Assembly (NCBI GenBank): GCA_964588495.1
Contig: CAZPPS010000002.1
Span: 1,108 to 65,107, forward strand
DNA from: an uncultured bacterium
GTDB taxonomy: Bacteria; Chlamydiota; Chlamydiia; Chlamydiales; JAAKFR01
Direction: 5' to 3'
Length of the DNA stretch: 64,000 bases
A program made the position numbers and the translations under genes. Shown here piece by piece: positions 13,474 through 45,960 of this stretch. A model generated the notes under the pieces. The model saw nothing but the letters and a program-made list of their open reading frames with translations, ran no database searches and had not been told where the DNA came from. How positions within the stretch are numbered: the first letter of the stretch is position 1; the number at the start of each line of letters is the position of its first letter.

Positions 13474-13539
13474 GTTCAAGCTTGGGTTTTTTGTAACCAT
13501 CTCCTAGAATAACCGCTGATTTTTAGGAGATTTCATCGC

Positions 13540-14022: not shown

Positions 14023-14032
14023 TCAGGTTAAT

Positions 14033-14632: not shown

Positions 14633-14633
14633 C

Positions 14634-14755
14634 CTTCCTGGAGTGCGGGGATTATTCGCCATCTGCCTAAATCTGAGCATCCTAAGTTTTTCAACACACC
14701 CCAGTTTTCTTGCCAATTGAAGGACCGCGAAGAATCGCCGCATTCCAGGAGAGCT
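14634..14755. repeat. Inverted repeat of the GGAGTGCGGCGA-type family (family C)
   Basis: cctggagtgcggggattattcgc (14639-14661) pairs with gcgaagaatcgccgcattccagg (14728-14750) at about 20/23 positions. The spacer is about 66 nt. The element lies directly after the tdk stop. Confidence 0.6.
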
Positions 14756-14898
14756 TTTCTTAATTATCCTTTATTAAGTCACTCATTTTAAAATACTTTT
14801 TTTCTGAATTGTATAATTTTGTTTTGAATCATATTAGAAAATATGGAGATAATAACTATATGAGAGTTTGAATACTAAGGATTTATAAAAATCGGGTC

Positions 14899-17067: not shown

Positions 17068-17070
17068 AAG

Positions 17071-17112
17071 CCTTCCTGGAGTGCGGCGATTCTTCGCCGC
17101 CCTCCAGGAAGG
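17071..17112. terminator. Family C hairpin between convergent genes (bidirectional terminator candidate)
   Basis: ccttcctggag-tgcggcgattcttcgccgcc-ctccaggaagg has an 11-bp outer stem plus an inner ggcga/tcgcc stem. It lies between the stops at 17067 (+) and 17114 (-). Confidence 0.55.
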
Positions 17113-17113
17113 T

Positions 17114-19745: not shown

Positions 19746-20817
19746 ATTTCCATCCGAAGGTGATAAAGAAAAGAGATTGAGGTACGAGTATGGCAACAAG
19801 AGGGGGGAGCAGCTGAGTTTTTCCCAAGATGATCGAGGCATTCAGGCACATAAAAAAAACGATAATCCCAGCTAAGCTCAAAGCATAAATTACAAAAACA
19901 GAGAGATTTCTGCAAACTTTTAGACAAAATGGGGCAATTGCGATAATGCCAAGCAAAGAAACTAAGGGAAGTGTGGATTTAAGATAAAAAAAGGTAGCAG
20001 CCTCTGCTTGTCTTACATTCATCTTTGTTAAATGAAAGAAATGGTGGTTGACCCTTAAATGGCGTGCCAATTCAGAAAGGGATTGCATGTGAGGAGGATG
20101 CATGGCATCGAATAAACTATCGGCATCAAAGTTCATATCAGGAAACACAAGCTCTGGTGAAGAGCCCATTTTTTTATACTCACCTTCTTCTGTACGGATA
20201 AGAGAATCGACATTTTTTCCCAAAGGAGTTTTTTCGTAAGGGAAAAGCCACTGGATGCGGGAAAGCTCATTTTCATTTTTCAGCCAGAAAACATCAAAAA
20301 AGGCCTGCTTTTCAGGTTCGAAACGTTGGTAGATCAAAAGGCTGTTATCTTTGAGAATGAGGGCATTGACCTTCTTTTCTTCATCCTTTTTAGCCCTTTT
20401 TTTAAAATAGTGCTCTTCAAAACGGGCAATTTGAGTGATGGATTGTGGTTGCAGATATTCAAAATTGATAAAAAGGGCAGCAGAAGCTAGAAGGGCTACA
20501 CACAAAAAAGGGTGCATGATTTTTTTAAGGGGAATTCCGCTGGCAGAAAGGGCGACAATTTCATTGCGTAAATTTGAGGTTGTGAGCACTTTAACGGCGC
20601 TTAGGACCATAGCGATCGGCACTAACATCTCTGCCCGTTTCGAGAATTGATGGAGATAATAGAAAAAGATATCGGTAGAGCTAATCGCAGGATTTTGAAA
20701 AGCTTTGGAGTGAATCGAGTAATCAAACAGGACATAGAGGAAATAAAAGATGCCGATAAAGAGGGAAAAGGTCTGCATCTGCTCTTTAAAGAAGTAGCGT
20801 TTCCAGATCAGCCTCAC
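19732..20817 (-). CDS. lptG: LPS export ABC transporter permease, YjgP/YjgQ family (second of pair)
   Basis: 361 aa with 6-TM YjgP/YjgQ topology and a central periplasmic domain. It overlaps a paralogous upstream gene by 4 nt. Confidence 0.7.
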   Translation of the reverse strand: MRLIWKRYFFKEQMQTFSLFIGIFYFLYVLFDYSIHSKAFQNPAISSTDIFFYYLHQFSKRAEMLVPIAMVLSAVKVLTTSNLRNEIVALSASGIPLKKIMHPFLCVALLASAALFINFEYLQPQSITQIARFEEHYFKKRAKKDEEKKVNALILKDNSLLIYQRFEPEKQAFFDVFWLKNENELSRIQWLFPYEKTPLGKNVDSLIRTEEGEYKKMGSSPELVFPDMNFDADSLFDAMHPPHMQSLSELARHLRVNHHFFHLTKMNVRQAEAATFFYLKSTLPLVSLLGIIAIAPFCLKVCRNLSVFVIYALSLAGIIVFFMCLNASIILGKTQLLPPLVAILVPQSLFFITFGWKYAKL

Positions 20818-21923
20818 TCGATTCCCTCATTGACACGTTTTAATGACCAAAAAGAGGCAAAGGTGATCGCAAGATGGGGCAAACAGAAACAAAGGCACGA
20901 GAGCCACAAGATCCTGTCGAAGGTTTTTCCCATAAAAAAAGCCATCAAAGCAGCGGCTGAAAGCATTAATACAAAAAGCCGTCTCTTTTTTTGGGATTTG
21001 CGGCCAATTTGTATTCCAAAACAGGCTCCCAGCAAAGCGAACGTAAAAGTTGAGGCTGCAAGCGAGAATCTGCGGACAAATTCTGAGCGGCATTTATTCA
21101 GAATTTGGAGAGTGCTTTCCCCTGTCTGCACCTGGGAGCTAAGCTCTTGAGTACGCAAGCGGAGCATTCTGAAATTGAGGTCTTTATTGGAAAGATTCCA
21201 CTTGGTTTTACTCAAAAGCTGAGCTAAATCACTGGCAGATGATGACATAGACTTTTGATTTTCAATGACTAAATGGTCTAATCCCTCTTTGTTTGGCAAG
21301 GAAGAGATGATGTTAATCCCTTGGGCTGTCAGTTTCTTTTCCTCCATCTCCACATGATCAACCAAACAGAGATTCAGTCTGTCCCCTTTGGGGGTTTTGA
21401 TGGCGACGACAAGATTTTGGGCAGACTCGCCACCGTGTTTGCTCTCCATTTGGACAAAAACGTCTTCCAGGGGCAAAGTCTTGGCATTTTGAAGTAAGAG
21501 GAGAGGGTTGACTGAGGTGAGCTCGAAGAGCATTTTGCGGCTCGCATGGTAAGTAGAGGTGGAAATCTCAGAGGCCGTATAAAAATTGACCAGGGCAAGG
21601 AAAAAACTGGTCAAAAGGATCGGGCTGATCAGCTTTTTGAGGGCAATGCCGGAGCTGCGGATGGCTGTGAGCTCGTGCGTTTGAGAAAGGTTCTGAAACA
21701 GGAGAAGCGAAGAGATAAGGCAGGAGATGGGAAGGGCAAAAGGGAGGATATAGGGGATTTGAAAGAGCGTGAAAAGGAGGATGTAGAGAGGTTTGGCCCC
21801 CATAGCTGCAAATTGGGCGATATCTTCGAGGCGGCTCATGAGAAGAATTGCGATGAAGGACGAGACCGAGAGGAGGAGAACTCGTAAATAGTTTTTAAGT
21901 AGATACCAATGGATGAGCGGCAT
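20814..21923 (-). CDS. lptF: LPS export ABC transporter permease, YjgP/YjgQ family (first of pair)
   Basis: The start is set to ATG 21921-21923 (MPLIHWYLLKNYLRVLLL). The ORF-track N-terminus (…GHRHGHGHGHG…) is a translation of the hexamer repeat element. Confidence 0.7.
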   Translation of the reverse strand: MPLIHWYLLKNYLRVLLLSVSSFIAILLMSRLEDIAQFAAMGAKPLYILLFTLFQIPYILPFALPISCLISSLLLFQNLSQTHELTAIRSSGIALKKLISPILLTSFFLALVNFYTASEISTSTYHASRKMLFELTSVNPLLLLQNAKTLPLEDVFVQMESKHGGESAQNLVVAIKTPKGDRLNLCLVDHVEMEEKKLTAQGINIISSLPNKEGLDHLVIENQKSMSSSASDLAQLLSKTKWNLSNKDLNFRMLRLRTQELSSQVQTGESTLQILNKCRSEFVRRFSLAASTFTFALLGACFGIQIGRKSQKKRRLFVLMLSAAALMAFFMGKTFDRILWLSCLCFCLPHLAITFASFWSLKRVNEGIE

Positions 21924-21988
21924 AGGAAAGCAGGATAAAGGATGAGGGTTTATTTGTTTAAGAAGATTATGTATTCTACTCACCCAAC

Positions 21989-22097
21989 CGTGCCCGTGCC
22001 CGTGCCCGTGCCTGTGCCCGCTCCTTTCCCGAAAGTTCAATCACGTAAAGCTTTCGGGAACGGGCGGGCACGGGCACGGGCACGGGCACGGGCACGA
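21989..22097. repeat. 109-bp hairpin of GTGCCC/CACGGG hexamer arrays
   Basis: The left arm is ccgtgcccgtgcccgtgcccgtgcctgtgcccgctcctttcccgaaag. The loop is ttcaatcacgtaaa. The right arm is gctttcgggaacgggcgggcacgggcacgggcacgggcacgggcacg. Confidence 0.85.
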
Positions 22098-22111: not shown

Positions 22112-23092
22112 GTGATCCAAGAAATTTTATCTCAATTCTTAGAACAGCATTGTCCTGGCAGTCTTCCATTACTCCTCGCTCTCTCGGGAGGGCCGGACTC
22201 AACCGCGCTCTTTCACGCTCTGCTCGAGCTCGAATATCCCTTTGAGGTAGCGCATGTTGATCATGGGTGGAGGGAAGAGAGCGTGGGGGAAGTAGCCCTT
22301 TTGCGACAGAAATGTGTTCTCTCAAAGGTTGTTTTTCATGAAAAAAAACTCGTTCCTCCAACCGACTCCAACAACTTAGAGGATAAAGCCCGCAAAGAGC
22401 GGCTCAGCTTTTTTAAACAGATGGTAGCGCAAAGAAACCTCGGTGGTGTGCTCTTAGCCCACCATGCCGATGATCATGCCGAGACTGTCTTAAAAAGGCT
22501 TTTTGAGGGGGCAAGCCTTCCTAAATTGAGGGGGCTCCAGCCTAAAAGCTCAAATGACGGCCTGATTCTCTATAGGCCTTTTTTGAAGCTGAAAAAGCAG
22601 GAAATCCTTCACTATTTGGAACTTAATAATATCAGCTTTTTTGTGGATCGGACCAATTCTGATCCTAAATATCTAAGGACAAGGCTTCGTGGTGAAATTA
22701 TTCCTGCAATGGCTTCCCATTTTGGCAAAGAGATTACGCATAATCTTTGTCGTCTTGGGGAATCTGCTGCTGAATTGGAAACTTTTTTAGAGGAATTGAG
22801 CGCTCCTTATCTACAAAAGATAGAAGAAACGGATGAGGGTAAGTGTCTCAATTTCAAGGAACCTCCAAGTTCACTTTTTTTGTGGAAGAACATCATCCGG
22901 GCTTTTTTTGAGCAGGAAAAACTAACGCTTACTAACTCTACCTTAGAGGTTATTTTGAGCCATCTTCAAAAAGGGAGTTGCCATAAAAGCCTGCACGTGG
23001 GAAAACAACGGATTTTGATTAACCGGCGCCATTTGGTGCTGATCCGGCAATCGAATAAAAAAGTTGATGCGGAAACGAAAGATCCGTTATGA
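22112..23092 (+). CDS. tilS: tRNA(Ile)-lysidine synthetase
   Basis: PP-loop LALSGGPDSTAL. 326 aa with a GTG start, located upstream of ftsH. Confidence 0.85.
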   Translation: MIQEILSQFLEQHCPGSLPLLLALSGGPDSTALFHALLELEYPFEVAHVDHGWREESVGEVALLRQKCVLSKVVFHEKKLVPPTDSNNLEDKARKERLSFFKQMVAQRNLGGVLLAHHADDHAETVLKRLFEGASLPKLRGLQPKSSNDGLILYRPFLKLKKQEILHYLELNNISFFVDRTNSDPKYLRTRLRGEIIPAMASHFGKEITHNLCRLGESAAELETFLEELSAPYLQKIEETDEGKCLNFKEPPSSLFLWKNIIRAFFEQEKLTLTNSTLEVILSHLQKGSCHKSLHVGKQRILINRRHLVLIRQSNKKVDAETKDPL

Positions 23093-23202: not shown

Positions 23203-25956
23203 ATGGCGAATGATAAGAAACAAAATCCAGATCAGCAAAAGAAAGGTTTCCCCACCACGTTTTTCCTTTTTCTTTTAGCGGTTATATTAGTTGTCATTAC
23301 TATTCAGAACTTTATGACAACGAAAAATGCTAAAGTGTCCTTTAGCCACCAAGTGGAACATCTGGTTAATTTGAATTTACTTGTCCCAGAAGACAGCCGA
23401 AAGGTCTCTTTGAACGACAATCTTGTCACCTTTAGCGGAAAATTTCGGGAAAGCGAAACCGACGAAGGAAAAAAACGTTTCAGGTTTCTGGAACTTTTGG
23501 AGACGAACCACAATTTAAAAAACAGCATCGAAGAGAGCTCTGCCACGCTTAAGCGTCTGGATCAAGAGATTAGAGAGGCCGCAATCTGGTTTTTAGACAT
23601 TAGTGGCGAGCCTGTCCCTGCAGGGGGCTATCGCGTGGTTGATGAGTCTTATGATCAGCCCCAAAGGCAAAATGGGATCCTTATTAAGCAAAAATCTGCA
23701 AAAGATGTCCCAAGCCTGAAAGTCCTCAAAGGGCAACTGAACCATATTGTAGATACCCGTCAAACCAATTTGAGTGGCTTTGAGATCGAACTTGCGGCAT
23801 TGGTTGCTAACTTCAGATCTCCAATCCTGGGAATTGGTGCCGAATCGATCAAGCAGGAGCTGAAAACCCTTGAAAAAGAGGTTGAAAGAGCTGCGACAAC
23901 CGATATGACATGGCAGGCAAAGATTGCGATCTACACAGGCGTTTTGACTAAATTGCAAACAATTGTCAATCTTCTAGATCAGCCGGTCGATAATATCCGT
24001 CTCAGTGAGCTCCGCTCTGTGCGTCAGTATAAAGAAGAAATGGAGCGTTATAATACGCTCACTCAAGACCTGGATACAAACGAATCGCAGCTTGAAAAGG
24101 CACGCAATTCTGTTTCACAGGTCATCTGGTATTACAATAATAAAGAGCTATCTACAAGGGCTTTAGAGCGTCAGGATCCTGAAGTTTATGGCCATTGGTT
24201 TGCCAATGCCAAAGAGGAATGGGACAATTTCAAATATAATAAAGGCCTCTATTTTAAAGCCCCCGATCAACCCAGAAATGTGGCCCTTGAAAAAACATTT
24301 AAAAGTGAGAGCCATGCTCCTAATTATTTGAGCTATATCCTCACTATTTTGCCCATTGTTTTGATCGTCCTCCTCCTCTACTTTGTCTTCTCAAGACAAA
24401 TGAAAGGGATGGGTGGAAATGCGATGAGCTTTGGCAAATCACCTGCCAAAATGCTCACAAAAGGGCAAAACAAGGTCACCTTTAAAGATGTTGCCGGTAT
24501 TGACGAAGCGAAAGAAGAGCTCGTTGAAATCGTGGACTTTTTGAAAAACCCAGCCAGATTCACCACTTTAGGTGGTCGTATTCCTAAGGGTGTTCTTCTC
24601 ATTGGTCCTCCTGGCTGCGGTAAAACCATGATTGCCAAAGCCGTCGCAGGGGAAGCGGATCGTCCTTTCTTCTCCATTGCAGGCTCTGACTTTGTCGAGA
24701 TGTTTGTGGGTGTGGGCGCAAGTCGTATCCGCGATATGTTTGATCAGGCTAAGAAAAATGCTCCTTGTATCATCTTTATCGATGAGATCGATGCTGTGGG
24801 ACGTCATAGAGGTGCAGGCATTGGCGGTGGTCATGATGAGCGTGAGCAGACTTTGAACCAGCTTCTGGTTGAAATGGATGGCTTTGACACGAACGAAGGG
24901 GTCATTTTGATGGCGGCTACCAACCGTCCAGACGTATTGGATAAGGCCCTTTTGAGACCTGGCCGTTTTGATAGACGGGTTGTGATTGGTCTTCCCGACA
25001 TCAAAGGACGCTACGAAATTCTTAAAGTGCATGCCCGCAAAATCAAAATCGATCCGACAGTGGACTTACTGGCAGTTGCCAAGAGCACGCCGGGAGCCTC
25101 AGGTGCCGATCTTGAGAACTTGCTCAATGAATCTGCCCTTTTGGCTGCGCGTAAATCAAGAACGGCTGTGACAAACACAGAAGTTGCAGAAGCACGTGAT
25201 AAGGTCTTGTACGGAAAAGAGAGAAGAAGCCTCGAAATCGGGGAACAGGAGAAAAAGACGACAGCCTATCACGAAGCAGGTCATGCGATTGTGAGTCTGA
25301 TTGTCGATCACTCCGATCCTGTAGAAAAGGTGACAATTATTCCAAGGGGACTCTCTTTGGGAGCGACTCACTTTTTGCCTGAAAAAAACCGCTTAAGCTA
25401 TTGGAAAAAAGAAGTTGTGGATCAGCTGGCTGTCCTCATGGGTGGACGTGCCGCTGAGCAGATTTTTGTAGGGGATGTCTCTTCGGGTGCCCAGCAGGAT
25501 TTTGCACAAGCCACACGCCTTGCAAGAAGCATGGTCTGCGAATGGGGCATGAGCGATAATCTGGGCAATGTGGCCTATGACGACCGCTTTGACAATGGTG
25601 GCGGCTACACAGGAGTGTCCTACCACGAAAAGAGCTATTCTGAAGAAACGGCAAGAGCTATCGACGAAGAGGTCAGAAACCTTCTCGATACTGCCTATAA
25701 GCGTGCGGTCGATATCATCGAGCAAAAACGGGCTCAAATGGAGCTCATGGCACAAATGCTCATGGAATTTGAAACTCTTGATGCCCACGATGTGCGTGAC
25801 ATCATCAACAACTCGTGGGATCCCGAGAAGAAGCGCAAGCGCCTCAAAGATCAAGAACAGCTCTTCAAGCGCCAGCCTGAAACGCCTCCGCCACCTCCTC
25901 CAAACATCACCGACGAGGTCAAGAAAAAGGGTGACTTGGGCTTCAACCCCACCTAA
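23203..25956 (+). CDS. ftsH: ATP-dependent zinc metalloprotease FtsH with long N-terminal periplasmic extension
   Basis: Walker A GPPGCGKT, Walker [13 protein letters not shown], and the zinc motif HEAGHAI. The 917-aa length is as seen in chlamydial FtsH. Confidence 0.95.
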
Positions 25957-25960
25957 TTCT

Positions 25961-26331
25961 TTTGGAGTGCGGCGACTCGTCGCCGCTTTTCAACGAATTG
26001 AAGTCTAATAGCGGCGACTTGTCGCCGCCCCCTAAATCTAGTTCCTTGGCGGTGACAAGTCACCGCACTCCAAAAAAGCTAAGGATCCTTCGTTTTTCTA
26101 AACACAAAGACACTAAGACACAAAGAGAGGATTTTGTTTTCTCTCGGTCCCTTTGGAGTGCGGCGACTCGTCGCCGCTTTTCAACGAATTGAAGTCTAAT
26201 AGCCGGCGACTTGTCGCCGCCCCCTAACTAGTTCCGGGGGCGTTAGACCAAGTCACCGCTACTTTTGTGGAAACATTTGAAAAAGCGGTGACAAGTCACC
26301 GCACTCCAGAAAAGCTAAGAATTCTTCGTTT
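25961..26331. repeat. Tandemly duplicated composite palindromic element (family C units, with a family B arm between them)
   Basis: An ~85-bp direct repeat at 25961-26045 recurs at 26152-26235, near-identical. Each copy is followed by the complementary arm gcggtgacaagtcaccgcactcc (26049-26071 and 26285-26307). aaacacaaagacactaagacacaaagag lies at 26099-26126. Confidence 0.8.
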
Positions 26332-28010
26332 TCAATAGGTTAGGGGCTCAACTTGTGGCCATTGCTCTAGGAGGGAGAGAGCCTCTTGGAGGAGGGGGGC
26401 AGGAACTTTGGGATTGATGCAGAGGGCATTGAGGTTTTCTAGGGCTTCGGTAGATAGGTGGTCGGCAAAGCCTTCGTGGACCATTTTGGCAAGATAAAGA
26501 GTGGCCTGAAACTGATCTTCTGGGTCGGCAATTGGGCTACTACGTACTGCCTGGAGCATGCCGACGATTTCTGCGGCAGAATTTAAGCGGTTGTACAATT
26601 TTTTATATAAAACCAAAGCACGGTAGAGTTTCGCTTTAATAATCAGGTCTTTCGGGAAGATGCGGCAGCTGGGATGGCTGTCTAAGGTTTGATCCTCCTC
26701 CAGATCGATCACATCCCAAAGATGCAACAGAATGGTTTCTTCTCCGAGGAATTGGTGGTAGTAGGAAATGATGGCCAGGTAGAGTCTGGCAATGTGTTTT
26801 AAAACATTCGGACCGCCATTGAAACTAAAGTTCATCAATTGCAAGTGGATCTGATAAGGGTCGCCCTGGTTGTGATAGGCAACGAGTGTTGAAAAAGGGG
26901 AGCAAAGATATGGGCAGGCAACGGGGTCGAACATTGCGGAAAGTTAAGCCTTTCAGATAGGGTTTGGGCATCTATTTTTTCGAAGCCGCTTTTGAGATAG
27001 AGCATTATTTGATAAAAAGTGGCTTCGATTTGTTCCTGTTGATAGCGAGCATCCAAACGGACTTTTTCCAAAAGGGCAATCGCTAGGTCATCGCTAATCG
27101 CATCTGTGAGTCTAAACGCTCTACAGTAACCGATAAAAACGATCGCCTTTGCAAGCCTTTCAGGGGCGATGACTGGATCATCAAGGGCTTCAAGGAATAT
27201 CTGGAAGATCCTTTGGAATCTTTTTTCGGAGAGAGTATCTTTTAATGTGGCGAAGCGATCGATGAGGATTTCGACAATACGGGATTTGTGGTGTTTCTCG
27301 AATGCCTTGTCATTATAGGCGCCTTCAAAAAATGCCGTATTCAAGCTTTTTTCCTTTAATTCGAGATGAAAATAATGGGCTGCGACGAGTGCTCTCTTTC
27401 GACTTTCCTCTGAAATGCCTATAAGCTTAGCATACTGTGACGATTGCCAATCTTGATCAGTTCTATAATTTACAGCATGACGTGTACGGGTCATGATGGA
27501 ATAGACAAAATCGGTCACGTCTTTTTTGTAGTTAAAATAAGTTTTAAAGTTAATATGGCCAGTCGCTTGTGCTTGAACGACAAATTTCTCGCGGACGCTT
27601 AAATCCCCTTTGCGCAAAATCAGATCTAATTGCTGCTCATTTGAAAGCGTTATGCCTTCAAGCACTCTGATAATTTCTACCGCCCTTTTATTCGCTTTAT
27701 GGGCACAATAATGGAGGCAAAGAACCGATAGACAATTGACATCCCTGTCCGCTTCTCCCTTCAAAAGGGCTTCTTTATAAGAAAGAGCGTCGGTTTTCAG
27801 GATGCCCGCCTTTTCAAAAAGGACTCTATAGAAATCCCGATACCCTGTCAGGTGTTGGAAGGTTTTACAAGTGATCGCGAGCTTCTCACACTCATTGTAG
27901 CTCAAATAACGCATCACAAGTGGGGCAAGATCAGACATCCAAACGCAAGCGTTCACAAAAGTTGTCTCAGGGACTTGAACCGGAAAAGCAGAGAGGTGAT
28001 TGCAGATCAT
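26332..28010 (-). pseudogene. F-box-like paralogue family member, split into two overlapping ORFs (26835..28010 N-part, 26332..26934 C-part)
   Basis: The N-part carries the F-box-like segment (LVMRYLSYNECEKLAITCKTFQHL). The C-part carries family C-terminal motifs (ARLYLAIISYY, KAKLYRALVLY). The two frames differ and overlap by 100 nt. Confidence 0.55.
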
Positions 28011-29368
28011 AAAAGTTTTGCGACTGCAGCCTTAAGGAGTTCAGCCTCTCGTGGAGGTAATCTGTCTGCCAACTTTAAAAGAATGACATACTCAGAATCA
28101 AAAATGCTGATTTCTTCACATTGAAGGAGCAGCTGGGGAGTCACTGTTTGTCCAAGAGGCAAATGTTCCTTGATAACTAAATAATTTGTCGAGGCTGAAA
28201 GTTTTTCCTCTCGTGGTATAAATGCAAAGCTAATATGAATTTTTCCAAGCCACACAAGGATTTCATCTGATGTCATTTGCGTGGTATACACGCCGCTTAA
28301 ATGGTCCAAAATGATGTAAAGTTGAGCACGCAGAGCCTCAGCTGGAAAATTGTTTATGCTGTCGCAGACCTCTTTTAATAGCGCATATCTGTCAGAAGGG
28401 GTTGGTTTCTCAGATAAAGGCATGATTGCCAAGTAAAGCTTGGCTTTCATGACACTCTCACGGTCTGAAAGTGGATTTGTGACAACACCATTAAGTAATT
28501 CATATTTCGCGCTCGGAGAGAGGATGTCGATCGGATCTTCTTCATGCATTGACATCATTTGCATTTGGAAATAGGGGATGTTTTTTCGTTGGCAATCAGT
28601 ACTTCTCTTTAGAAGATCGGCATAACGCACAGAAAAGCGCAATTCTGCCGTCCGCCTTGGTAATGTCAAAGATGGGGACGTCCATTCTTGACAGGGCGCC
28701 ACAAGAGCTTCACGGTGCTTTTTATCGAGGAGTAAATTTTGAGACATGATGTTTTTGTCATGAATCGTCTGAAAAGCTTGCTTTGGATCGCGCAGGCCAT
28801 AGTAGGCAGCTTCCGCACAGGCTTTTTTGTAATTTTTATACTTTTCCTCGGCTTTATGCTGATCGATGTTTATAAAATCCGTAACTTCTTTCGATATCCG
28901 GTCGATAAAAGCTTGTGGGATTGCCTCAAATTTTTTAGGGAAATAGGAGTAACTGATGTAAATGTCCCCTTTGCGGAGCATCAGTTCTAATTGCTGCAGT
29001 TTCGAAAGCTCAAGTTTTTCAAGCTTTTGAATCAAAGCCACGATTTTTTGGATTGTGCTTGAAAACTGCAGAAAATCGCACAGGTGCTCACAAAGCGCTA
29101 GCAGAGCGACGGGATTACCCTCATCCCCTTTTTCCAACAAACAGTCTTTGTAAGAAATTCCCACAGGTTTTGCTAGCCCAAGCCGGAAAAAAAACTCTAG
29201 ATAATGGGCAGAGTTTTTAGAAGCCTCGCTAAAACTTTTACAAACTAAACCCATCTTTTCACATTCAAAGTGTGGAAGAAAGCGCATGATATTTAAAAGG
29301 ATATCGACGTTGTTTTGAAACACACATCCTGTGTGATTAGGGTATAATGTGGTATGATTGTGGATCAT
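28007..29368 (-). CDS. F-box-like domain protein, lineage-specific paralogue family
   Basis: The N-terminus ILLNIMRFLPHFECEKMGLVCKSFSEA fits the F-box pattern LPxE..x.I..L....l..l.lVCK.w. The family core motifs LELSKLQQLELMLRKGD and LLLDKKHREAL are present. There are ATGA overlaps at both ends. Confidence 0.75.
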   Translation of the reverse strand: MIHNHTTLYPNHTGCVFQNNVDILLNIMRFLPHFECEKMGLVCKSFSEASKNSAHYLEFFFRLGLAKPVGISYKDCLLEKGDEGNPVALLALCEHLCDFLQFSSTIQKIVALIQKLEKLELSKLQQLELMLRKGDIYISYSYFPKKFEAIPQAFIDRISKEVTDFINIDQHKAEEKYKNYKKACAEAAYYGLRDPKQAFQTIHDKNIMSQNLLLDKKHREALVAPCQEWTSPSLTLPRRTAELRFSVRYADLLKRSTDCQRKNIPYFQMQMMSMHEEDPIDILSPSAKYELLNGVVTNPLSDRESVMKAKLYLAIMPLSEKPTPSDRYALLKEVCDSINNFPAEALRAQLYIILDHLSGVYTTQMTSDEILVWLGKIHISFAFIPREEKLSASTNYLVIKEHLPLGQTVTPQLLLQCEEISIFDSEYVILLKLADRLPPREAELLKAAVAKLL

Positions 29369-38139: not shown

Positions 38140-39588
38140 ATGCTTAGAAAAAAATATTATATGCTGCCTGTTAAAGAACTTCGAGCGTCCACTCATCTTA
38201 AAACTCACGAGAGTATAACAAAGCCCAAGGAAACGATGGGCCGCAAGTATTTAGACATCACAGACGCGCCTTCCCTCATGCTGTTTCAGAATGATGCCTA
38301 CAAAGATGACCCCGAATTTGGCCAAATCAAGATGCAGATGAGAGTTTATGGAGTTTTCATCCGTTTTGTTGTCCCTTATATCTTCGATTGTGAAACTTCA
38401 AGAGGAAAGACTATCTTGCAATGTGGACAATCAAAGCTTGAAAACGGGGAGTGTGCTCACTTTGCTTTAACACCAAATATTCAAGATGATAAGCTGAAAA
38501 GGATCATAGAGGAATTTAATAATGATGCCGTGATTACCCCTAAGAAAGGGGCCTATCTCGATGCCCGTTGTAATTTGGACTCGCCAGAGAAAAAGGCTTT
38601 TCGGAAATTAGAATTTGGTCATGAACGGATCCAATTTGTACATAGCAGGGTTCAGCCTCAGGACTATTGTAGTTCTTTTAATCAGACAGACCTGCAAACA
38701 CAGTTTAGCGGCACTTTGGAAGGATCTCTTGGAGCTAATGATCTCGATGGTGCTCTTGAGAAAGTGTTGCGCCCTCTTGAAGATGAGTATTGCAAGAAAA
38801 TCTTTAATAAGGAACTCACTCCAGAAAAGGCCATCGAGGCTTTTTATGACGAGCTTTCAACAATTCTAACAACTGCTGTCAAAAATCTGACAGCTAGGCT
38901 TACGCAGCTTGAAAACTACTATGCTCTTGAAAAAGAGCTCTATGAGCTCGAAGAGGCCTATCTGAAAAATCCCGTCATCGATGTTTCCCAAATTGACAAA
39001 TACGCCGAAGGCGTTTCAAAACTTTTTGAACTCAAAAAATCCATCGAAACAAGGCTCTCTTATAGCACCAATTTTGTTAACGGTTTTCTCATGAAGGTAC
39101 CTTACCGGCGTGATTTTGCCTGGTTGAAAGGTTTTAGCAATGCTTATGAGACGCTCGATGATGATGCTCTGAAAGTTTATCAGTTCGAATTGCTCATGAA
39201 AAAAATACAACGGATTCCTGTTGAGGAAAATCCAAATGCTTTAAAACTGACCCGTGAGAGGCTTGAGGAGGCGAAAAACCAACAAATCGGCCTTGAAGAC
39301 CTGGGTCTGTGCCAAATCAAGAATCTGATGACCCATCTCTTTGGCGTCCGTGGTCCGGATGGAACGCGAAGAGCTCCTAATCAAACAGAGCTATTTGAGC
39401 AATTCGTGTCGATGACGCGAAAAAAGAAAAAGTCTTCCAAACCAAAACCCAAATCCAAACAATTGGATCAAGTTGAGAATTCCCTCAGAAGAAAAGCAGG
39501 GGAGCTGGGCAAAGAAAATATCCAATCCCTGCAGAACAGTCCAATCAAGAAGAAGATACGAATGGACAACTATCAACGAGCTGTTTAA
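38140..39588 (+). CDS. Hypothetical protein, coiled-coil rich with a basic C-terminal tail
   Basis: A long ORF. ATG 38140 or ATG 38161 is preferred over the TTG at 38113. The C-terminus reads TRKKKKSSKPKPKSKQ...SPIKKKIRMDN. No family was recognised. Confidence 0.55.
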   Translation: MLRKKYYMLPVKELRASTHLKTHESITKPKETMGRKYLDITDAPSLMLFQNDAYKDDPEFGQIKMQMRVYGVFIRFVVPYIFDCETSRGKTILQCGQSKLENGECAHFALTPNIQDDKLKRIIEEFNNDAVITPKKGAYLDARCNLDSPEKKAFRKLEFGHERIQFVHSRVQPQDYCSSFNQTDLQTQFSGTLEGSLGANDLDGALEKVLRPLEDEYCKKIFNKELTPEKAIEAFYDELSTILTTAVKNLTARLTQLENYYALEKELYELEEAYLKNPVIDVSQIDKYAEGVSKLFELKKSIETRLSYSTNFVNGFLMKVPYRRDFAWLKGFSNAYETLDDDALKVYQFELLMKKIQRIPVEENPNALKLTRERLEEAKNQQIGLEDLGLCQIKNLMTHLFGVRGPDGTRRAPNQTELFEQFVSMTRKKKKSSKPKPKSKQLDQVENSLRRKAGELGKENIQSLQNSPIKKKIRMDNYQRAV

Positions 39589-39838
39589 GCATGTCAAAAT
39601 CGGATTGACTTAAGTTTTTTTCTGCATAAGAGCAGGTTTCGACGGCAATTTTTCTAATCCAGTCAATATCAGGAATGGCATCGTGCAAGTAAAAGGCCTG
39701 AGTGATAGCCACAAACGGATCTTGAGGAATGTGTGCTTCCAGGATTTGTTTGATCTTTTCAGCTCTAGCTGTTCTATCTTCCGCTGGCATCTGTGGATGA
39801 TCTATAAGGAATTTCGTTACGATCGTAGCAACGCTCAT
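39545..39838 (-). CDS. Small hypothetical protein
   Basis: A 97-111 aa ORF with convergent overlap of 44 nt with the previous CDS. No recognisable motif, so the coding call is tentative. Confidence 0.3.
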   Translation of the reverse strand: MSVATIVTKFLIDHPQMPAEDRTARAEKIKQILEAHIPQDPFVAITQAFYLHDAIPDIDWIRKIAVETCSYAEKNLSQSDFDMLKQLVDSCPFVSSS

Positions 39839-39973
39839 GAACACACTTCTTGGAATAAAAGAGTGACTTATAGCAGGCAAGCGTATTTAAATTAAAGAGT
39901 TGCTTCACACTTGAAACATTTGGAGCCCTTAAGGTACAAGGGCGTTGTGATGTTCCGTTTCTTCTCCAGAGCT

Positions 39974-41320
39974 TTATTTAAAAATTTTTGAGACGATTTT
40001 ATTTTGAGCCTGGATTTGATAACGTTGGGCTATTTCCTTAAATTGAGGAGAAATGCAATCGAAAGGATGTGAGGTCTCAGAGGATGCGATCACGCTCTCA
40101 AATAAACTGGCAGCATCTGCCAAACCACTTTTTGATAACTGTGGGTTTTGAAACAATAACAAACCACTCTGTAGCTTAGCACAAAGTTGCACATGCTTAA
40201 ACTCGCATTCTTGGGCTAGCTTCTCTAATTCATGCAGTTTTTTAGCCGTGTTTTTTTCTAATAGAGTATTATATAAAACTGATAATTCCTCAGCGTGAAT
40301 AGATAAGTGGGAACTTACTTGAAACAAGCTTCTTAGCTTTTTCACATCTCTATTTTTTGTCGAATTATAATAGAGCATTCCTTTGTAGATAGAGCTATCA
40401 GCGCGGTAGACATCGCATACTCTTTTGTCTTTTTCAATAGAATCGAGGCCGGCAATAAGCGCCTCAAATTGTCCATTGAGAGGTAAAAAACCGGTGGCAT
40501 AACCAAAAGCCATGAAGTTGATGGCGCACGCTCGATCATCAGCGAGGGCTTGGTGACAATTAGCTACAGAGTTACATATTAAAAAAAATTGATAACAAGA
40601 AATGTTTGGCGGATTGTTTTCAATAATTGCTTGAGCCGCAATTATTCTTAAATGGGCTAGATGCCGCATATCCAAAAATTCATTATTTAATGCCGGCTCG
40701 ATGTCTTGAAAGTCGGGGAAACAGGTAAAAGCCGTGATGGAATAAAGAATTTTGTAATAGGTCGCTTCAGCCTTTTCTCGCTGACACTTGTCGTCAGCGA
40801 GATAATAAGGAGCTTCTAACTGCTGGCTATTGATTGAAATGGGAGATTTGTCATCCTCTCCCTCCCATGAAGCCTCATCTATGTCTTGGATATTTAATGT
40901 AGATTCAATAAAAAACTTGACGTCTGCGCCATATGCCAAACCCGCTTTTGCATGTGTATCTATCGTCTGGTTTGCAAAAAAGAAAATATCGGCTTTGCAC
41001 AAGGTAAGGTTCAACCATTGCTTAGGGTTTAAGTCCAAATTTTCTAAATGGGCGATTAACTTTATGGCTGCGTTAAATTGGGGGGGACATCTAAGCTCAG
41101 CGCATAAGTTGTAACAAGCCAAAAGCTGGAGATCCTGGAGTCTTTCTTGAAAGAATGTGCAGGTGAGGCCTAGGCTGTTCCTATCCTGAGCATCTGGCAA
41201 TTTTGCAAAAATATAAATGGCAATTTCGTTGACCTGCTGACACATTGTGTCTAAACGGATTTCTGGCTGATTGTAAATATTATTGGAATGATCAAGGTCA
41301 AGGATTCTTTTCACAAGCAA
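39974..41320 (-). CDS. Divergent member of the F-box-like paralogue family (lacks the C-terminal 42-aa modules)
   Basis: IAIYIFAKLPDAQDRNSLGLTCTFFQERL is the F-box-like segment. LIAHLENLDLNPKQWLNLTLCKADIFFF and FLDMRHLAHLRI are colinear with the family core. The start is TTG 41320, with an alternative ATG at 41245. Confidence 0.65.
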   Translation of the reverse strand: MLVKRILDLDHSNNIYNQPEIRLDTMCQQVNEIAIYIFAKLPDAQDRNSLGLTCTFFQERLQDLQLLACYNLCAELRCPPQFNAAIKLIAHLENLDLNPKQWLNLTLCKADIFFFANQTIDTHAKAGLAYGADVKFFIESTLNIQDIDEASWEGEDDKSPISINSQQLEAPYYLADDKCQREKAEATYYKILYSITAFTCFPDFQDIEPALNNEFLDMRHLAHLRIIAAQAIIENNPPNISCYQFFLICNSVANCHQALADDRACAINFMAFGYATGFLPLNGQFEALIAGLDSIEKDKRVCDVYRADSSIYKGMLYYNSTKNRDVKKLRSLFQVSSHLSIHAEELSVLYNTLLEKNTAKKLHELEKLAQECEFKHVQLCAKLQSGLLLFQNPQLSKSGLADAASLFESVIASSETSHPFDCISPQFKEIAQRYQIQAQNKIVSKIFK

Positions 41321-41359
41321 AAGAATATCAAAGTCTTATGTAAAAAATCAAGTTGATTG

Positions 41360-41391
41360 GAAAATACAGAAGCCCCAATGAGGGGCTTCTG
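41360..41391 (-). terminator. Rho-independent terminator after pnp
   Basis: On the minus strand: cagaagcccc-tcatt-ggggcttctg followed by tattttcc. It begins 10 nt after the pnp stop. Confidence 0.75.
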
Positions 41392-41400
41392 CGGAGGTGT

Positions 41401-43503
41401 TTAGGCAGCAGGAGCTGCAGCTATTGCTTTGCGGCTCAGCTTGAGCTGACCACGCTCGTTGATGTCGAGCACCTTGACGGAGATGACATCGCCTTGCTTG
41501 ACGTGATCGAAGATATTTTGGACACGCTCTGAAGAAAGCTCAGAGATGTGGCAGAGACCTTCTCTTCCAGGCAAAATTTCAACAAAAGCTCCGAAGGCGA
41601 CAACTGAGGTCACTTTTCCTGTGTAGATTTTGCCGATTTCAACTTCGCCCACAAGCCCTTCGATGATCTGCTTTGCATGATTCATCGATTCTTGTGAATT
41701 GGAAGCGATGCTGATCAGGCCTGAATCATTGATATCGATTTGAACGCCTGTCACTTCGATAATGTGTCTGATTTGCTTCCCACCAGGGCCAATCACCGTT
41801 GCAATCTTGCTTGGATTGATCTGGACGGTCTCAATGCGCGGTGCGTAGACAGACATTTCTGTGCGAGATTCTGGGAGCGCTTCGAGCATTTTCTTGAGGA
41901 TATGAGTTCTGCCCTCTTTAGCTTGTGCCAAAGCAGATTTCATAATCTCGAGAGTGATTCCCTCAACTTTAATATCCATTTGGAAAGCTGTGATTCCTTC
42001 AGCATCTCCTGTCACTTTAAAGTCCATATCACCAAGAGCATCTTCTAGGCCCAAAATATCAGAAAGAATCGCAATGCGCGCTTCTTCCAAAATCAGACCC
42101 ATAGCAATACCGGCAACAGGGCGCTTAATGGGCACCCCTGCGTCCATCATCGCCAAACAGCCGCCGCAAACAGAGGCCATTGATGAAGAACCGTTAGATT
42201 CAGTGATGTTAGATTCGAGGCGAATTGTGTAGGGGAATTCTGTGAGGGATGGAATCGCAGCTTTCAAAGCACGTTCTGCCAGTTTTCCGTGTCCCACTTC
42301 TCTTCTTCCAGGAGAGCCGATGCGTCCCACTTCACCTACAGAGAAAGGAGGGAAGAAATAGTGGAGATAAAAGCGGTTTAAGCCCTCTCCATTGAGATCT
42401 TCAAAGCGCTGTCCCATGCTCTCACCGCCGAGCGTACAAACAGCCATGGTTTGTGTCTCACCACGTGTAAAGAGGCAGTTTCCATGCGTGCGGGGCAGAA
42501 TGCCAAGTTCGCTGTCAATCGGACGGATATCTTTGACGCCCCGTCCATCGACACGAACACCTTCATCGAGAATGAGATGGCGCATGTACTTGGAAGAGAT
42601 TTTTTTGTAGGCTGCCTTGACGTCTACGCTTGTATACTTGCCAGGAGTACCCTCTGGGAGCAAATGTTTCAGAATTGTTTCTTCAATCGTATCGATAGAT
42701 TCTTCCCGATCTTGTTTCACAGGAATGCGGATCGCCTTTTTCAAAGAATCGGCGGTCATATTTTCGATTTCTTGAAGGAGGGCCTCAGGCAAAGCACGGA
42801 TCCCTTCACGGTTCTTAGGCTTGCCAATTTCATTTTGCCACTCTTGGATCGCTTGGCAGATTAAAGCAATTGACTTATGGCCTGCTTCAATGGCTGCAAT
42901 GACCTGTGCTTCTGTGAGGAAGTCGCAATACCCTTCAATCATCAAAATAGCATCTTCTGTCCCTGCCAAAAGGAGATCCAGGCGAGAGCGCTGCATTTCA
43001 TCCACTGTGGGGTTGATGATAAATTTATCACCAATCATGCCCACACGTACCCCAGCAACGGGTTTGACGAGAGGGATATCAGAAATAGCAAGGGCTGCTG
43101 AAGTTGCACAGATCGCTAGAGGATCGGGAAGATTGACACCATCATAGGACCAGACGTAGGCTAAGAGTTGTACTTCTTTGTAAAAACCATCTTCAAACAT
43201 CGGCCGCAACGGGCGATCGATCAGACGGGAAGTTAAGATTTCCCTTTCTGATGGGCGTCCTTCTCGTTTGATAAAGCCACCCAAAGTTTTCCCTGCGGAG
43301 AAGAATTTCTCCTGATAATCGACTCTTAAGGGAAGAAAATCTACCTCAGCGTCTGCTTCAGGGGCAGAGCAGGCAGTTGCGAAGACAATTGTTTCTCCGA
43401 GACGAACAAGGACTGCGCCGTTTGCTTGCTTAGCGACTTTTCCGGTTTCGAAAGAGAGTTGTTTATTTTCAGAAAACGTTACCGTTTTAAATTTGCGTTC
43501 CAT
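41401..43503 (-). CDS. pnp: Polyribonucleotide nucleotidyltransferase (PNPase)
   Basis: 700 aa with two RNase PH domains, a KH domain (IGPGGKQIRHI) and an S1 domain (GKIYTGKVTSVVAFGAFVEI). Confidence 0.95.
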   Translation of the reverse strand: MERKFKTVTFSENKQLSFETGKVAKQANGAVLVRLGETIVFATACSAPEADAEVDFLPLRVDYQEKFFSAGKTLGGFIKREGRPSEREILTSRLIDRPLRPMFEDGFYKEVQLLAYVWSYDGVNLPDPLAICATSAALAISDIPLVKPVAGVRVGMIGDKFIINPTVDEMQRSRLDLLLAGTEDAILMIEGYCDFLTEAQVIAAIEAGHKSIALICQAIQEWQNEIGKPKNREGIRALPEALLQEIENMTADSLKKAIRIPVKQDREESIDTIEETILKHLLPEGTPGKYTSVDVKAAYKKISSKYMRHLILDEGVRVDGRGVKDIRPIDSELGILPRTHGNCLFTRGETQTMAVCTLGGESMGQRFEDLNGEGLNRFYLHYFFPPFSVGEVGRIGSPGRREVGHGKLAERALKAAIPSLTEFPYTIRLESNITESNGSSSMASVCGGCLAMMDAGVPIKRPVAGIAMGLILEEARIAILSDILGLEDALGDMDFKVTGDAEGITAFQMDIKVEGITLEIMKSALAQAKEGRTHILKKMLEALPESRTEMSVYAPRIETVQINPSKIATVIGPGGKQIRHIIEVTGVQIDINDSGLISIASNSQESMNHAKQIIEGLVGEVEIGKIYTGKVTSVVAFGAFVEILPGREGLCHISELSSERVQNIFDHVKQGDVISVKVLDINERGQLKLSRKAIAAAPAA

Positions 43504-43701: not shown

Positions 43702-43971
43702 CTATTTTCTAAGATTCAGTCTCTTGATGAGGTTTTTGTAGCGTTCGGTATCTGTAGAATTCAGATATTCGAGCAGCTTACGTCTTTGCCCTACAAGTTT
43801 CAATAATGCAAGTCTTGAGTTGTGATCTTTTGGAGCTCTTTTTAAATGATCTGTAAGCTCTGCAATGCGCTCTGTCAAAATCGCAATCTGAACGTCGGCT
43901 GAACCAGTGTCTTTCTCGTGCAGTTGAAATTTTTTTGTAATTTCTTCCTTTGTGCCTTTATCTAGCGACAT
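43702..43971 (-). CDS. rpsO: 30S ribosomal protein S15
   Basis: 89 aa, with [19 protein letters not shown]...[23 protein letters not shown]. Confidence 0.95.
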
Positions 43972-44330: not shown

Positions 44331-44801
44331 ATGGATATAGATATCGATGTTGCGTTCATGCGCGAAGCTTTGAAGGAAGCGAAAAAAGCTTATAAGGCAG
44401 GAGAAGTGCCCGTCGGTGCGGTTCTGGTTTTAAATGGCAAAGTCATTGCCCGCGGCCATAATCAGGTGGAGCTTCTCAAGGACGCCACAGCCCATGCGGA
44501 GATGCTTTGCATGGGAAGCGGCGCGGTCGCCCTTGAAAACTGGCGTCTTCTCGAAACAACGCTTTATTGCACAATAGAGCCTTGCTGCATGTGCGCAGGG
44601 GCCCTTTTCCTCTCAAGGGTGAAGCGCCTTGTCTGGGGGGCTCCTGATGTGCGCCATGGGGCAAACGGCAGCTTTGTCGACCTTTTTGCCCTCAAACACC
44701 CCACACACCAAATAGAAATTACTTCAAATATTTTATCAGAAGAGTGCAGCGCTCTCATGCAGGAATTTTTCCGTGAACGAAGAAATAAAAAAATTGATTG
44801 A
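44331..44801 (+). CDS. tadA: tRNA adenosine(34) deaminase
   Basis: CDA-fold zinc motifs HAEMLC and PCCMCAGA. 156 aa. Confidence 0.9.
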   Translation: MDIDIDVAFMREALKEAKKAYKAGEVPVGAVLVLNGKVIARGHNQVELLKDATAHAEMLCMGSGAVALENWRLLETTLYCTIEPCCMCAGALFLSRVKRLVWGAPDVRHGANGSFVDLFALKHPTHQIEITSNILSEECSALMQEFFRERRNKKID

Positions 44802-45135: not shown

Positions 45136-45960
45136 TTACTTATTTCTACGCTCAGAGATTTTTTGCATGCGAGTCTTTTCTCGAGCGGTCAGTGAGTCGG
45201 CGCCTTTCTGAGAGATTTTGGCAAGCATCCGGTCCATGAAGGCTTCGTCGCTTTCCTGAAAGACTGAAATGTCGATGACTTTATCATCTGAGGAGGCCTT
45301 CTTGCTGGGTTTGCGGCGGAATTCGAGGTTGAGGGGGTAGGGGTTGGGAAGCTTCCAGAGGTATCTGCCGACAAGAAATCCGAAAAGGATGCCGCTAAGG
45401 TCTGCAAGGAAAGTAATTCCTGCGCCGTAGGAGAGGCTGATGAGGAGCGAGAAGACCAGATAGAGAGCGATGAGCCATTTGGTTTTGATACGGACAAAAA
45501 AGAGGAAGGTGAGCTCAAGATCGGGGTAGATCATGGCCCAAACCAGCATGAGGGCTAAGATTGGAGGGGCGCTCGTTGCCAAAAGGGTGCTGGAATTAAA
45601 GATCAGAAGGGCTAGGGAGGCGATAATCCCTGCAAAAAGACCTGCGCCTAGATAAAAGGTGAGGAACTGTTTTGAGCCAAAGCGGGCGTCTATCTCTGAA
45701 CCTGTAAACCAAAGTAGGACCATTTGGAGGAAAAGGGTGAAAAGAAGGGCAAACGAAATGCCGATCCCAGCTGAGTTCAGAAAAAAATAGGTTAGGGGTT
45801 GCCAAAGCCAGAGTTGTTTGAGGCCAAATAACGACAAACTAAGCCACGAACTGATCGGAGCAAAATAGTAAGTGGCTACGGGGACTAAAAGAGAAAGTGC
45901 CGCGGTGATCACAATCAGCCACTTGACACTTTTGGGCGTTTTATTAGAGAGTATATTCAT
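45136..45960 (-). CDS. Rhomboid family intramembrane protease-like protein
   Basis: Multi-TM. It has WQPLTYFFLN (rhomboid WRxxT..FlH-like), the TGSEIDARFGSKQF loop, and the GxSG-like ADLSGILFG. Confidence 0.65.
   Translation of the reverse strand: MNILSNKTPKSVKWLIVITAALSLLVPVATYYFAPISSWLSLSLFGLKQLWLWQPLTYFFLNSAGIGISFALLFTLFLQMVLLWFTGSEIDARFGSKQFLTFYLGAGLFAGIIASLALLIFNSSTLLATSAPPILALMLVWAMIYPDLELTFLFFVRIKTKWLIALYLVFSLLISLSYGAGITFLADLSGILFGFLVGRYLWKLPNPYPLNLEFRRKPSKKASSDDKVIDISVFQESDEAFMDRMLAKISQKGADSLTAREKTRMQKISERRNK

Follow-up and report, generated by a model that had tools for sequence, protein, structure and literature searches.

What kind of DNA separates ftsH from pnp in an uncultured member of the Chlamydiales, and how did it come to lie there? 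In the window, that is, the whole 64-kb stretch of the source genome that was analysed (contig CAZPPS010000002.1), the convergent genes ftsH (23203-25956, plus strand) and pnp (41401-43503, minus strand) stand 15.4 kb apart within the block lptG-lptF/tilS-ftsH...pnp-rpsO/tadA, and a survey of open reading frames (ORFs) shows that the interval between them (25957-41400) is almost fully coding. It contains seven paralogous F-box-like loci, one membrane-anchored kinase-fold gene and two orphan ORFs. The explanation that we consider probable is that the interval is a lineage-specific accessory cluster at a variable junction, and that its array of F-box-like effector candidates grew by tandem duplication in place.

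All seven F-box-like loci are found on the minus strand, and six of them follow each other directly head to tail: locus 1 (26332-28010, split), locus 2 (28007-29368, 453 amino acids, aa), locus 3 (29365-31467, 700 aa), locus 4 (31542-33608, 688 aa), locus 5 (33686-35308, 540 aa) and locus 6 (35305-36953, split). The divergent locus 7 (39974-41320, 448 aa) lies on the same strand as pnp and directly downstream of it. That the seven belong to one family, as the initial annotation had proposed, is supported by all-against-all BLASTP, profiles and a multiple alignment. Pairwise BLASTP E-values within the family span 1e-108 to 1e-12; loci 2-6 share 33-50% identity over 200-520 aa (locus 2 and locus 3, 46% across the N-terminal 210 aa), locus 1 stands at 23-29%, and locus 7, more distant by BLASTP and profiles, reaches E=3e-18 with a family profile from which it had been left out. 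At the DNA level the repeats among paralogs are patchy, with 60-94% identity. Growth is also visible within single genes: relative to the 540-aa locus 5, the 700-aa locus 3 carries an internal duplication of its C-terminal repeat module (~190 aa), and the two proteins align in two blocks (residues 28-491 with 30-484, and 514-699 with 350-534). The loci form a tandem array as defined by Domman et al. 2014, with neighbouring paralogs that share a strand and are at least 30% identical along most of the sequence.

Two members of the array are degraded, as happens in arrays that evolve by birth and death, each of them split by one frameshift. In locus 1, the ORF at 26835-28010 encodes the N-terminal part with the F-box and the ORF at 26332-26934 the C-terminal repeats; both overlap by ~100 nt in different frames, which fits a single indel. 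Locus 6, whose N-terminal and C-terminal parts correspond to the ORFs at 36240-36953 and 35305-36189, is broken at an A8 homopolymer (36240-36252, minus strand), where one added A yields a single frame that agrees with the family consensus: the frame-restored ...SLKLLSDDPDTPMGIRIQSILRLG corresponds to ...IDLLKTISRDPATCTNHRIEAILKLG in a paralog. Profiles match the housekeeping genes that were checked over their full length (ftsH, pnp, phosphoketolase, alanine racemase, M32 peptidase and AcrB, the last at 2-1020 of 1021), so the assembly does not seem to be generally prone to frameshifts, and the splits in loci 1 and 6 are more likely to represent true pseudogenisation, or slippage at the A8 tract, than assembly errors. 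The A8 tract of locus 6 could also work as a slipped-strand on/off switch (phase variation).

Because the paralogs are contiguous, lie on the same strand, show graded similarity and include duplicated modules and two inactivated copies, the array appears to be home-grown. It would have expanded in place through repeated tandem duplication, divergence and occasional inactivation, in a birth-and-death process accompanied by the duplication of repeat modules within genes, and no mobile element would have brought it in as a single unit. A second argument in the same direction is that neither mobility machinery nor att-like repeats are seen and that both family relatives assigned to an organism are chlamydial. 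The lack of an integrase, a transposase or a tRNA in the interval had already been remarked upon, and domain and tRNA scans confirm it: no ORF of the interval carries an integrase, recombinase or transposase domain in Pfam or NCBIfam, neither tRNA nor tmRNA genes occur in the 64-kb window, no Rfam family is present in the interval, and no direct, att-like repeat is common to its two borders.

As for the relatives, a word-indexed search of 5.8 billion clusters, started either from one F-box member or from an 18-sequence alignment, returned solely the paralogs of the window itself. When 1.84 billion representatives were scanned exhaustively with a profile, 32 matches reached E<=1e-3, nine of them products of the window and the other 23 distant relatives. 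The nearest of these outside proteins (E ~1e-41 to 1e-12) combine an N-terminal F-box with helical repeats of ~36 aa. The two distant relatives that carry an organism name come from Protochlamydia and Rhabdochlamydiaceae, both chlamydial. One distant relative, P0051, could be placed in its genome, where it is a single gene among housekeeping genes, away from the pnp-ftsH junction.

The interval had also been described as more AT-rich than its flanks, and windowed GC and codon usage do show borders that are not flat, with a moderate shift in all the measures used. Windows of 1 kb inside the interval have 36-43% GC, except for the first, palindrome-bearing one (48%), and the adjacent flanks have 44-50%. 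Among the called ORFs, coding GC is 40.8% in the island against 45.6% in the rest of the window, GC at third codon positions (GC3) is 40.1% against 47.0% (per-gene Mann-Whitney p=7e-4), and GC at second positions (GC2) is 31.0% against 36.6%. The relative synonymous codon usage of island and flanks correlates at 0.79, compared with 0.93 for a control of one flank half versus the other. The shift in GC is within the range of some core genes (lptG, 40.4%). A low GC suits effector genes that evolve fast under weak constraint just as it suits a foreign origin, and alone it does not discriminate between them. Likewise, the interval has both of the features by which genomic islands are recognised, atypical composition and absence from relatives, and the same would equally be expected of fast-evolving native effector arrays.

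These features bring in the classical genomic island, according to which the whole 15.4 kb would have arrived in one horizontal transfer, through a phage, an integrative and conjugative element or a transposon, with its mobility genes lost later. Such an event would account for the lower GC and GC3 and for the deviating codon usage, as well as for borders that fall sharply at gene ends; the nearly identical, hence recently duplicated, repeats at the left border, the occurrence of their motif family mostly in high-GC, non-chlamydial contigs, and a DDE transposase in the pnp-ftsH gap of one relative can be added in its favour. However, the interval lacks an integrase, a transposase, a tRNA and flanking direct repeats, both organism-named relatives of the family are chlamydial, the kinase-fold gene has chlamydial homologues, and the GC shift is modest and graded. 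Moreover, seven paralogs at about 27-50% identity need a long divergence within the genome, and a single transfer of the whole interval seems to us quite unlikely.

With growth in place as the preferred origin of the array, the next question is what its products may do. Matches to the Pfam F-box and F-box-like models occur at an equivalent N-terminal position in all seven loci (E 7.6e-5 to 4.4e-3), among them locus 2 (F-box, E=0.0018), locus 3 (F-box-like, 2.4e-4), locus 7 (F-box-like, E=0.0029), and loci 4 and 5 (F-box, 22.3 and 22.7 bits), which score above the gathering score of 20.5. An AlphaFold2 model of locus 5 (predicted local distance difference test, pLDDT, 84; predicted template modelling score, pTM, 0.84) starts with ~25 disordered N-terminal residues, followed by an uninterrupted all-alpha solenoid of helical hairpins, a predicted architecture that provides the C-terminal repeat domain typical of F-box proteins. 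Foldseek relates this model weakly (E 5e-3 or weaker) to proteins with tetratricopeptide (TPR), ARM and HEAT repeats, such as IFIT5, Rap, Ctr9 and subunits of the APC/C. Neither the PDB, searched by sequence with the family, nor NCBIfam, searched with the island proteins, gave a match. Each protein would be made up of a disordered N-terminus, an F-box-like motif of three helices and a long all-alpha solenoid of the TPR/Sel1-like type. By analogy with known effectors, type III secretion would probably carry these proteins into the eukaryotic host. They could there stand in for the substrate receptors of the host Skp1-Cullin E3 ubiquitin ligase, or serve as decoys for it. With divergent solenoids, each paralog may bind host proteins of its own, and host Skp1-Cullin-F-box (SCF) ligases would thereby be redirected or blocked.

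Several points weigh against this picture, either as to the function of the proteins or as to the origin of the array. The F-box scores are marginal, since two of the seven loci reach the cut-off of PF00646 (20.5) and none that of PF12937 (24.3). In the alignment, all seven paralogs lack the LP of the canonical LPxE motif, which forms the Skp1-contacting start of helix 1; the Pfam F-box matches begin at positions 6-8 of the profile, and the residues aligned with LP are SS, TI, IG, NV, MS, CA and VN. Both points, the scores and the absent LP, weaken the step of ubiquitin mimicry. With respect to the origin, the paralogs are old (50% identity at most) and no recent duplication was caught; the lowered GC and the shifted codon usage could be signs of foreign DNA; both frameshifts could be assembly errors; and, as 64 kb of the source genome are visible, further copies of the family, or a donor locus, are possible elsewhere in it.

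The weakness of the F-box signal also leads to the view that these proteins are not mimics of the ubiquitin system at all, and that the F-box resemblance is incidental in helical-repeat proteins with a bacterial role, either in the envelope or in regulation. Pfam scores mostly under the gathering score, the absent LP, weak and generic Foldseek matches of the full model and the lack of a sequence match in the PDB are what one would then expect. The motif, however, keeps the same N-terminal position in the seven paralogs and occurs in most of the distant relatives scanned, two of which score above the gathering score (P0053 with 33 bits and P0057 with 29 bits), and an F-box combined with repeats is also how eukaryotic substrate receptors and known chlamydial families are built (PMC4209131). 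A purely bacterial role is, on balance, unlikely, and F-box-like effectors are still the candidates that we favour.

Whether such a cluster was inserted between two otherwise adjacent genes can be asked from the same junction in other chlamydiae. The block itself is well defined in the window by Pfam, with lptG (19732-20817, minus strand), lptF (20814-22040, minus) and tilS (22112-23092, plus) on the side of ftsH, and rpsO (43702-43971, minus), tadA (44331-44801, plus) and a rhomboid gene (45136-45960, minus) beyond pnp. The left anchor, ftsH, is recognised by Peptidase_M41 (3.6e-70) and AAA (1.2e-46), with full-length matches 61-78% identical in related loci, and the right anchor, pnp, by RNase_PH, PNPase, KH and S1. 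A PNPase scan over one genome per GTDB species, a set that does not include the source species, produced 80 loci, nearly all of them from chlamydial metagenome-assembled genomes, with pnp at 65-80% identity, and tblastn shows that the block rhomboid-tadA-rpsO-pnp-[gap]-ftsH-tilS-lptF-lptG recurs across related chlamydial loci. Pfam and the synteny of the related loci thus uphold the claim that 15.4 kb split ftsH from pnp within a conserved block.

The gap between pnp and ftsH is variable in size throughout these loci, the shortest being 108 bp and the longest over 10 kb. Where both genes are present (31 loci), its median is 3.2 kb, and it exceeds 1 kb in 26 of the 31; 17 further loci show no ftsH inside the 8-10 kb next to pnp. 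The shortest gaps are those of L070 (108 bp) and L064 (202 bp), followed by L004, L009 and L010 (0.65-0.8 kb), and many others measure 1.5-8.4 kb. The medians at other junctions of the block are 187 bp (rpsO-pnp), 482 bp (ftsH-tilS), 118 bp (tilS-lptF) and 11 bp (lptF-lptG); the tadA-rpsO junction (median 1.0 kb, up to 4.2 kb) and the rhomboid-tadA junction are also somewhat variable. In L064 (12179-12212) and L070 (3133-3167) the sole intergenic feature is a bidirectional terminator made of an A-tract, a 16-bp palindrome and a T-tract. No arrangement of the junction is simpler than this direct adjacency with one terminator, which is plausibly ancestral. The initial annotation assumed that ftsH lies beside pnp in reference chlamydiae, and adjacency is indeed seen in L070 and L064, but it does not hold in most environmental chlamydiae. 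In C. trachomatis (CT838-CT844) ftsH is presumably next to pnp; a literature search gave no confirmation of this order. One more arrangement was observed in L053, where ftsH-tilS-lptF are found upstream of rpsO. In this locus and in the 17 without a nearby ftsH, synteny is broken exactly at the junction, which indicates that the junction is also a rearrangement breakpoint.

The contents of the gaps differ in nearly every lineage, and 198 of their 280 ORFs are singletons. Several other lineages have small sets of tandem paralogs of their own at this position, and many of the genes named below are eukaryote-like or chlamydia-specific and concern the interaction with the host: L002 carries a UCH-type deubiquitinase of 1108 aa (12102-15425), L006 three tandem DUF720 paralogs (12142-13851), L008 an autotransporter, L013 three ankyrin paralogs (12419-16294), L019 a eukaryote-type tyrosine phosphatase (12725-13519) and L067 an ankyrin protein of 1466 aa (14721-19118). 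The gaps of one sublineage share a class II aminoacyl-tRNA-synthetase-like gene with an editing domain, and further gap contents include an ABC transporter, Hsp20, LysE, Ser/Thr kinases and one DDE transposase. The pnp-ftsH junction is a standing variable junction in environmental chlamydiae. The idea of an inserted island holds in that the interval is lineage-specific accessory DNA of low GC, and fails in that a single insertion into an adjacent pair does not fit a junction that varies throughout.

The possibility that related genomes already carry the same genes between ftsH and pnp was checked as well: by tblastn and profiles, none of the 80 related pnp loci has a homologue of any island gene, and the count of the F-box-like family at their junctions is zero. 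This result bears on an explanation by differential loss, where a large accessory region at pnp-ftsH would be ancestral and this genome would have kept genes that its relatives lost. Most relatives do carry something in the gap, and that of L003 holds an F-box-like protein (12193-13413, E=2.4e-15) with the position and orientation of locus 7. Yet this protein can be aligned to the family of the window over the F-box alone, no island gene is seen in the 80 loci even with profiles, and the distant family relative placed in its genome (P0051) is a single gene elsewhere; a tblastn search with all distant relatives against loci L001-L085 gave no match. Selective retention from a large ancestral region is, in our opinion, very unlikely. 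A lineage-specific cluster at a variable junction is the better account, and pnp-ftsH may even serve the whole phylum as a 'cradle', a site at which genes for host interaction are placed and amplified again and again, with the F-box, ankyrin, DUF720, deubiquitinase and phosphatase sets perhaps arising independently there.

Between loci 6 and 7 lie the remaining genes of the interval. The first one (37002-37946, minus strand, 314 aa), annotated early on as kinase-like, is borne out as such by its catalytic motifs and by structural comparison. It has 37 homologues (38 matches including the query), the best of them 50% identical, and the motifs G89xG91, K107, D246..N252 and D264 do not vary among 27 homologues. 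The AlphaFold2 model (pLDDT 90.6) predicts a transmembrane helix at the N-terminus, together with a kinase-like fold, for which Foldseek returns Rio2, WbdD and AceK at probability 1.0 and a template modelling (TM) score of ~0.35. With these proteins it shares the bilobal kinase fold, the Gly-loop, the catalytic Lys, the D..N pair and the metal-binding Asp, and it differs from them in a TM score of only ~0.35, in the absence of any Pfam or NCBIfam model that matches it and in its N-terminal membrane anchor; a PDB sequence search gave nothing meaningful. The protein belongs to a chlamydia-wide family. Its homologues in other chlamydiae, 35-50% identical, do not lie at pnp-ftsH and adjoin genes for an epimerase, a glycosyltransferase-9, PIG-L and GT4, as in L081 (10001-10918) and L083 (10001-10924), whose neighbourhoods contain sugar-nucleotide and lipopolysaccharide (LPS)-type genes. 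These neighbours suggest a sugar or LPS-core kinase, and the gene may be a conserved envelope-related one that resides by chance in the cluster. The statement that the interval holds no housekeeping gene is doubtful on this account.

Two orphan ORFs were found where two or three had been announced. The larger one (38113-39588, plus strand, 491 aa, with an alternative ATG start 16 codons in) has no match in Pfam, NCBIfam or a PDB sequence search, and no homologue in 84 loci (the 80 pnp loci plus L081-L084). Its C-terminal tail is lysine-rich, and within the last ~60 residues the stretches RKKKKSSKPKPKSK ... PIKKKIRMD look like eukaryotic nuclear localisation signals. It is divergent to the kinase-fold gene, from which it is separated by an inverted repeat (37962-38052) with 39-nt arms, 82% complementary, and a 13-nt spacer, which may be a shared regulatory element. 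The reality of the smaller ORF (39545-39880, minus strand, 111 aa) is doubtful, and no relatives of it were detected in Pfam or NCBIfam.

The borders of the interval are marked by hairpins, which raises the question of whether they took part in its formation. On the right side, the hairpin ascribed to the pnp terminator is indeed located directly 3' of the pnp stop (41367-41391, minus strand), and comprises a 10-bp stem CAGAAGCCCC/GGGGCTTCTG and a 5-nt loop, followed by TATTTTC on the pnp strand. On the left side, a composite palindrome (25960-26332) consists of two tandem units of three hairpins each, with the apex GAC-NN-GTC. Six copies of GCGGYGACNNGTCRCCGC occur at 25969-26302, zero being expected by chance, and the region folds with z = -12.3 against shuffled controls. 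The two units (25957-26100 and 26148-26336, the second with a 46-nt insert) are about 97% identical, which implies a recent duplication. The first hairpin, on the plus strand, begins 4 nt past the stop codon of ftsH and has TTTT after it, and the last one, on the minus strand, comes after the stop of the final gene of the array and is followed by TTTTT. As both trail stop codons and precede T-runs, the outer hairpins are 3'-end structures of convergent genes. The GGAGT-headed outer hairpins of the left border and the hairpin of the right border are terminator-type 3'-end structures and not recombination sites of an island. The duplicated palindrome proposed as the left border is real as two tandem units, but it is not specific to the island, since its motif family is found mainly outside chlamydiae.

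As a separate observation, the left-border hairpin is a member of a sequence-conserved motif of 29 nt, TTTGGAGTGCGGYGAC-NN-GTCRCCGCTTT. The pattern GGAGTGCGGYGACNNGTCRCCGC was found in at least 120 contigs (L086-L205) of a metagenome collection, with at least 149 copies, and in three viral contigs (L206-L208); a plasmid collection gave no full match, and 84 loci, mostly chlamydial pnp neighbourhoods, contained one copy (L067:7553-7570). Among the matches listed, the carrier contigs have 35-70% GC with a median of 56%, and therefore most of them would be non-chlamydial. The same set of listed matches shows that the TTT...TTT flanks are kept in 121-141 of 146 copies, that the variable stem pair covaries strictly (85 C-G, 60 T-A, 4 T-G and 0 C-A), and that the loop is pyrimidine-rich in a strand-specific manner (TT 59, TC 26, CT 24, AA 1). 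Given these conserved flanks, the covarying stem and the strand-specific loop, the motif is not a product of chance. Also among the listed matches, copies are frequently in inverted pairs 40-160 nt apart, as in the window, a co-oriented gene end usually precedes the motif by 4-20 nt (median 19.5; 62 co-oriented against 26 opposite), and some contigs hold 2-5 dispersed copies. Rfam, at gathering and permissive thresholds, gave merely spurious miRNA-type hairpin matches for the palindrome, and the sequence words of the motif are absent from the searchable literature. Reading the palindrome as an integron attC site was rejected, as 125 of 146 copies have a T where GTTRRRY would require its G.

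The motif behaves like an element of terminator type or of the type of repetitive extragenic palindromes (REPs) and bacterial interspersed mosaic elements (BIMEs), with an unusual conservation across taxa. Like REPs and BIMEs, the hairpins of the window are GC-rich, imperfect palindromes of ~25-35 nt, located outside genes after stop codons or between convergent genes, and form clusters of alternating orientation with an asymmetric 5' head beside the stem. The differences are that REPs normally are species-specific, whereas a 29-nt consensus is maintained here across contigs of 35-70% GC, and that all six copies in the 64-kb window sit at one locus, without the dispersion typical of REPs. In addition, the REP-associated tyrosine transposase (RAYT), or any other transposase, was not seen among the best 25 of 123 families for the 90 ORFs next to motif copies, and these neighbours are ordinary and diverse. 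The hairpin cluster may be part of a so far undescribed family of elements, TTTGGAGTGCGGYGAC-NN-GTCRCCGCTTT, that follow stop codons in more than one phylum; this family may be mobile or recombinogenic and may help to destabilise the junction. This idea and that of a phylum-wide cradle at pnp-ftsH form, taken jointly, a tentative proposal, possible though doubtful. In any case, a post-stop hairpin common to very different bacteria is the most unusual thing observed at this locus and, if truly undescribed, the more interesting lead.

With regard to the array, a previously unseen and nearly orphan F-box family, with 23 relatives among 1.84 billion representatives, joins the eukaryote-like effectors of environmental chlamydiae. 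Because one conserved junction holds different host-interaction genes in each lineage, pnp-ftsH offers a practical landmark for the discovery of effectors in chlamydial metagenome-assembled genomes. The current understanding of how such gene families evolve is unchanged. The array follows a pattern already known for amoeba-associated chlamydiae and is not a new kind of mobile island. The F-box, BTB and RING families of Parachlamydiaceae also form tandem arrays with pseudogenes, evolve by birth and death and have been proposed to interfere with host ubiquitination (Domman et al. 2014, PMC4209131). As in the families NEX1/NEX2 and PEX1/PEX2 of those environmental chlamydiae, an N-terminal F-box-like motif is joined to C-terminal repeats, and the arrays lie on one strand, with paralogs of at least 30% identity and pseudogenised members (PMC4209131); the copy number, lineage-specific in those families, may be so here as well. 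The family of the window, in contrast, has no detectable homology to them in the searches of 5.8 billion clusters and 1.84 billion representatives, its repeats are a TPR/Sel1-like alpha-solenoid with no Pfam match instead of leucine-rich repeats, its array has 7 loci instead of tens to more than 100, and its F-box lacks the LP motif.

Another comparison is offered by AnkB/LegAU13, LegU1 and LicA of Legionella pneumophila, which combine an F-box with interaction repeats and exploit the host SCF ligase, an action like the one that, by analogy, is proposed here. These effectors, delivered into amoebae and macrophages, are Dot/Icm (type IV) substrates encoded by single genes, with ankyrin or other C-terminal domains, and the binding of AnkB to Skp1 depends on the LP dipeptide that is absent in the family of the window. 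Finally, the plasticity zone of Chlamydiaceae, near the replication terminus, has another location and other genes (cytotoxin, MACPF, phospholipase D and tryptophan genes), and the variability at pnp-ftsH is that of environmental lineages; what both regions have in common is a hypervariable segment within otherwise collinear genomes, occupied by lineage-specific genes for the interaction with the host.

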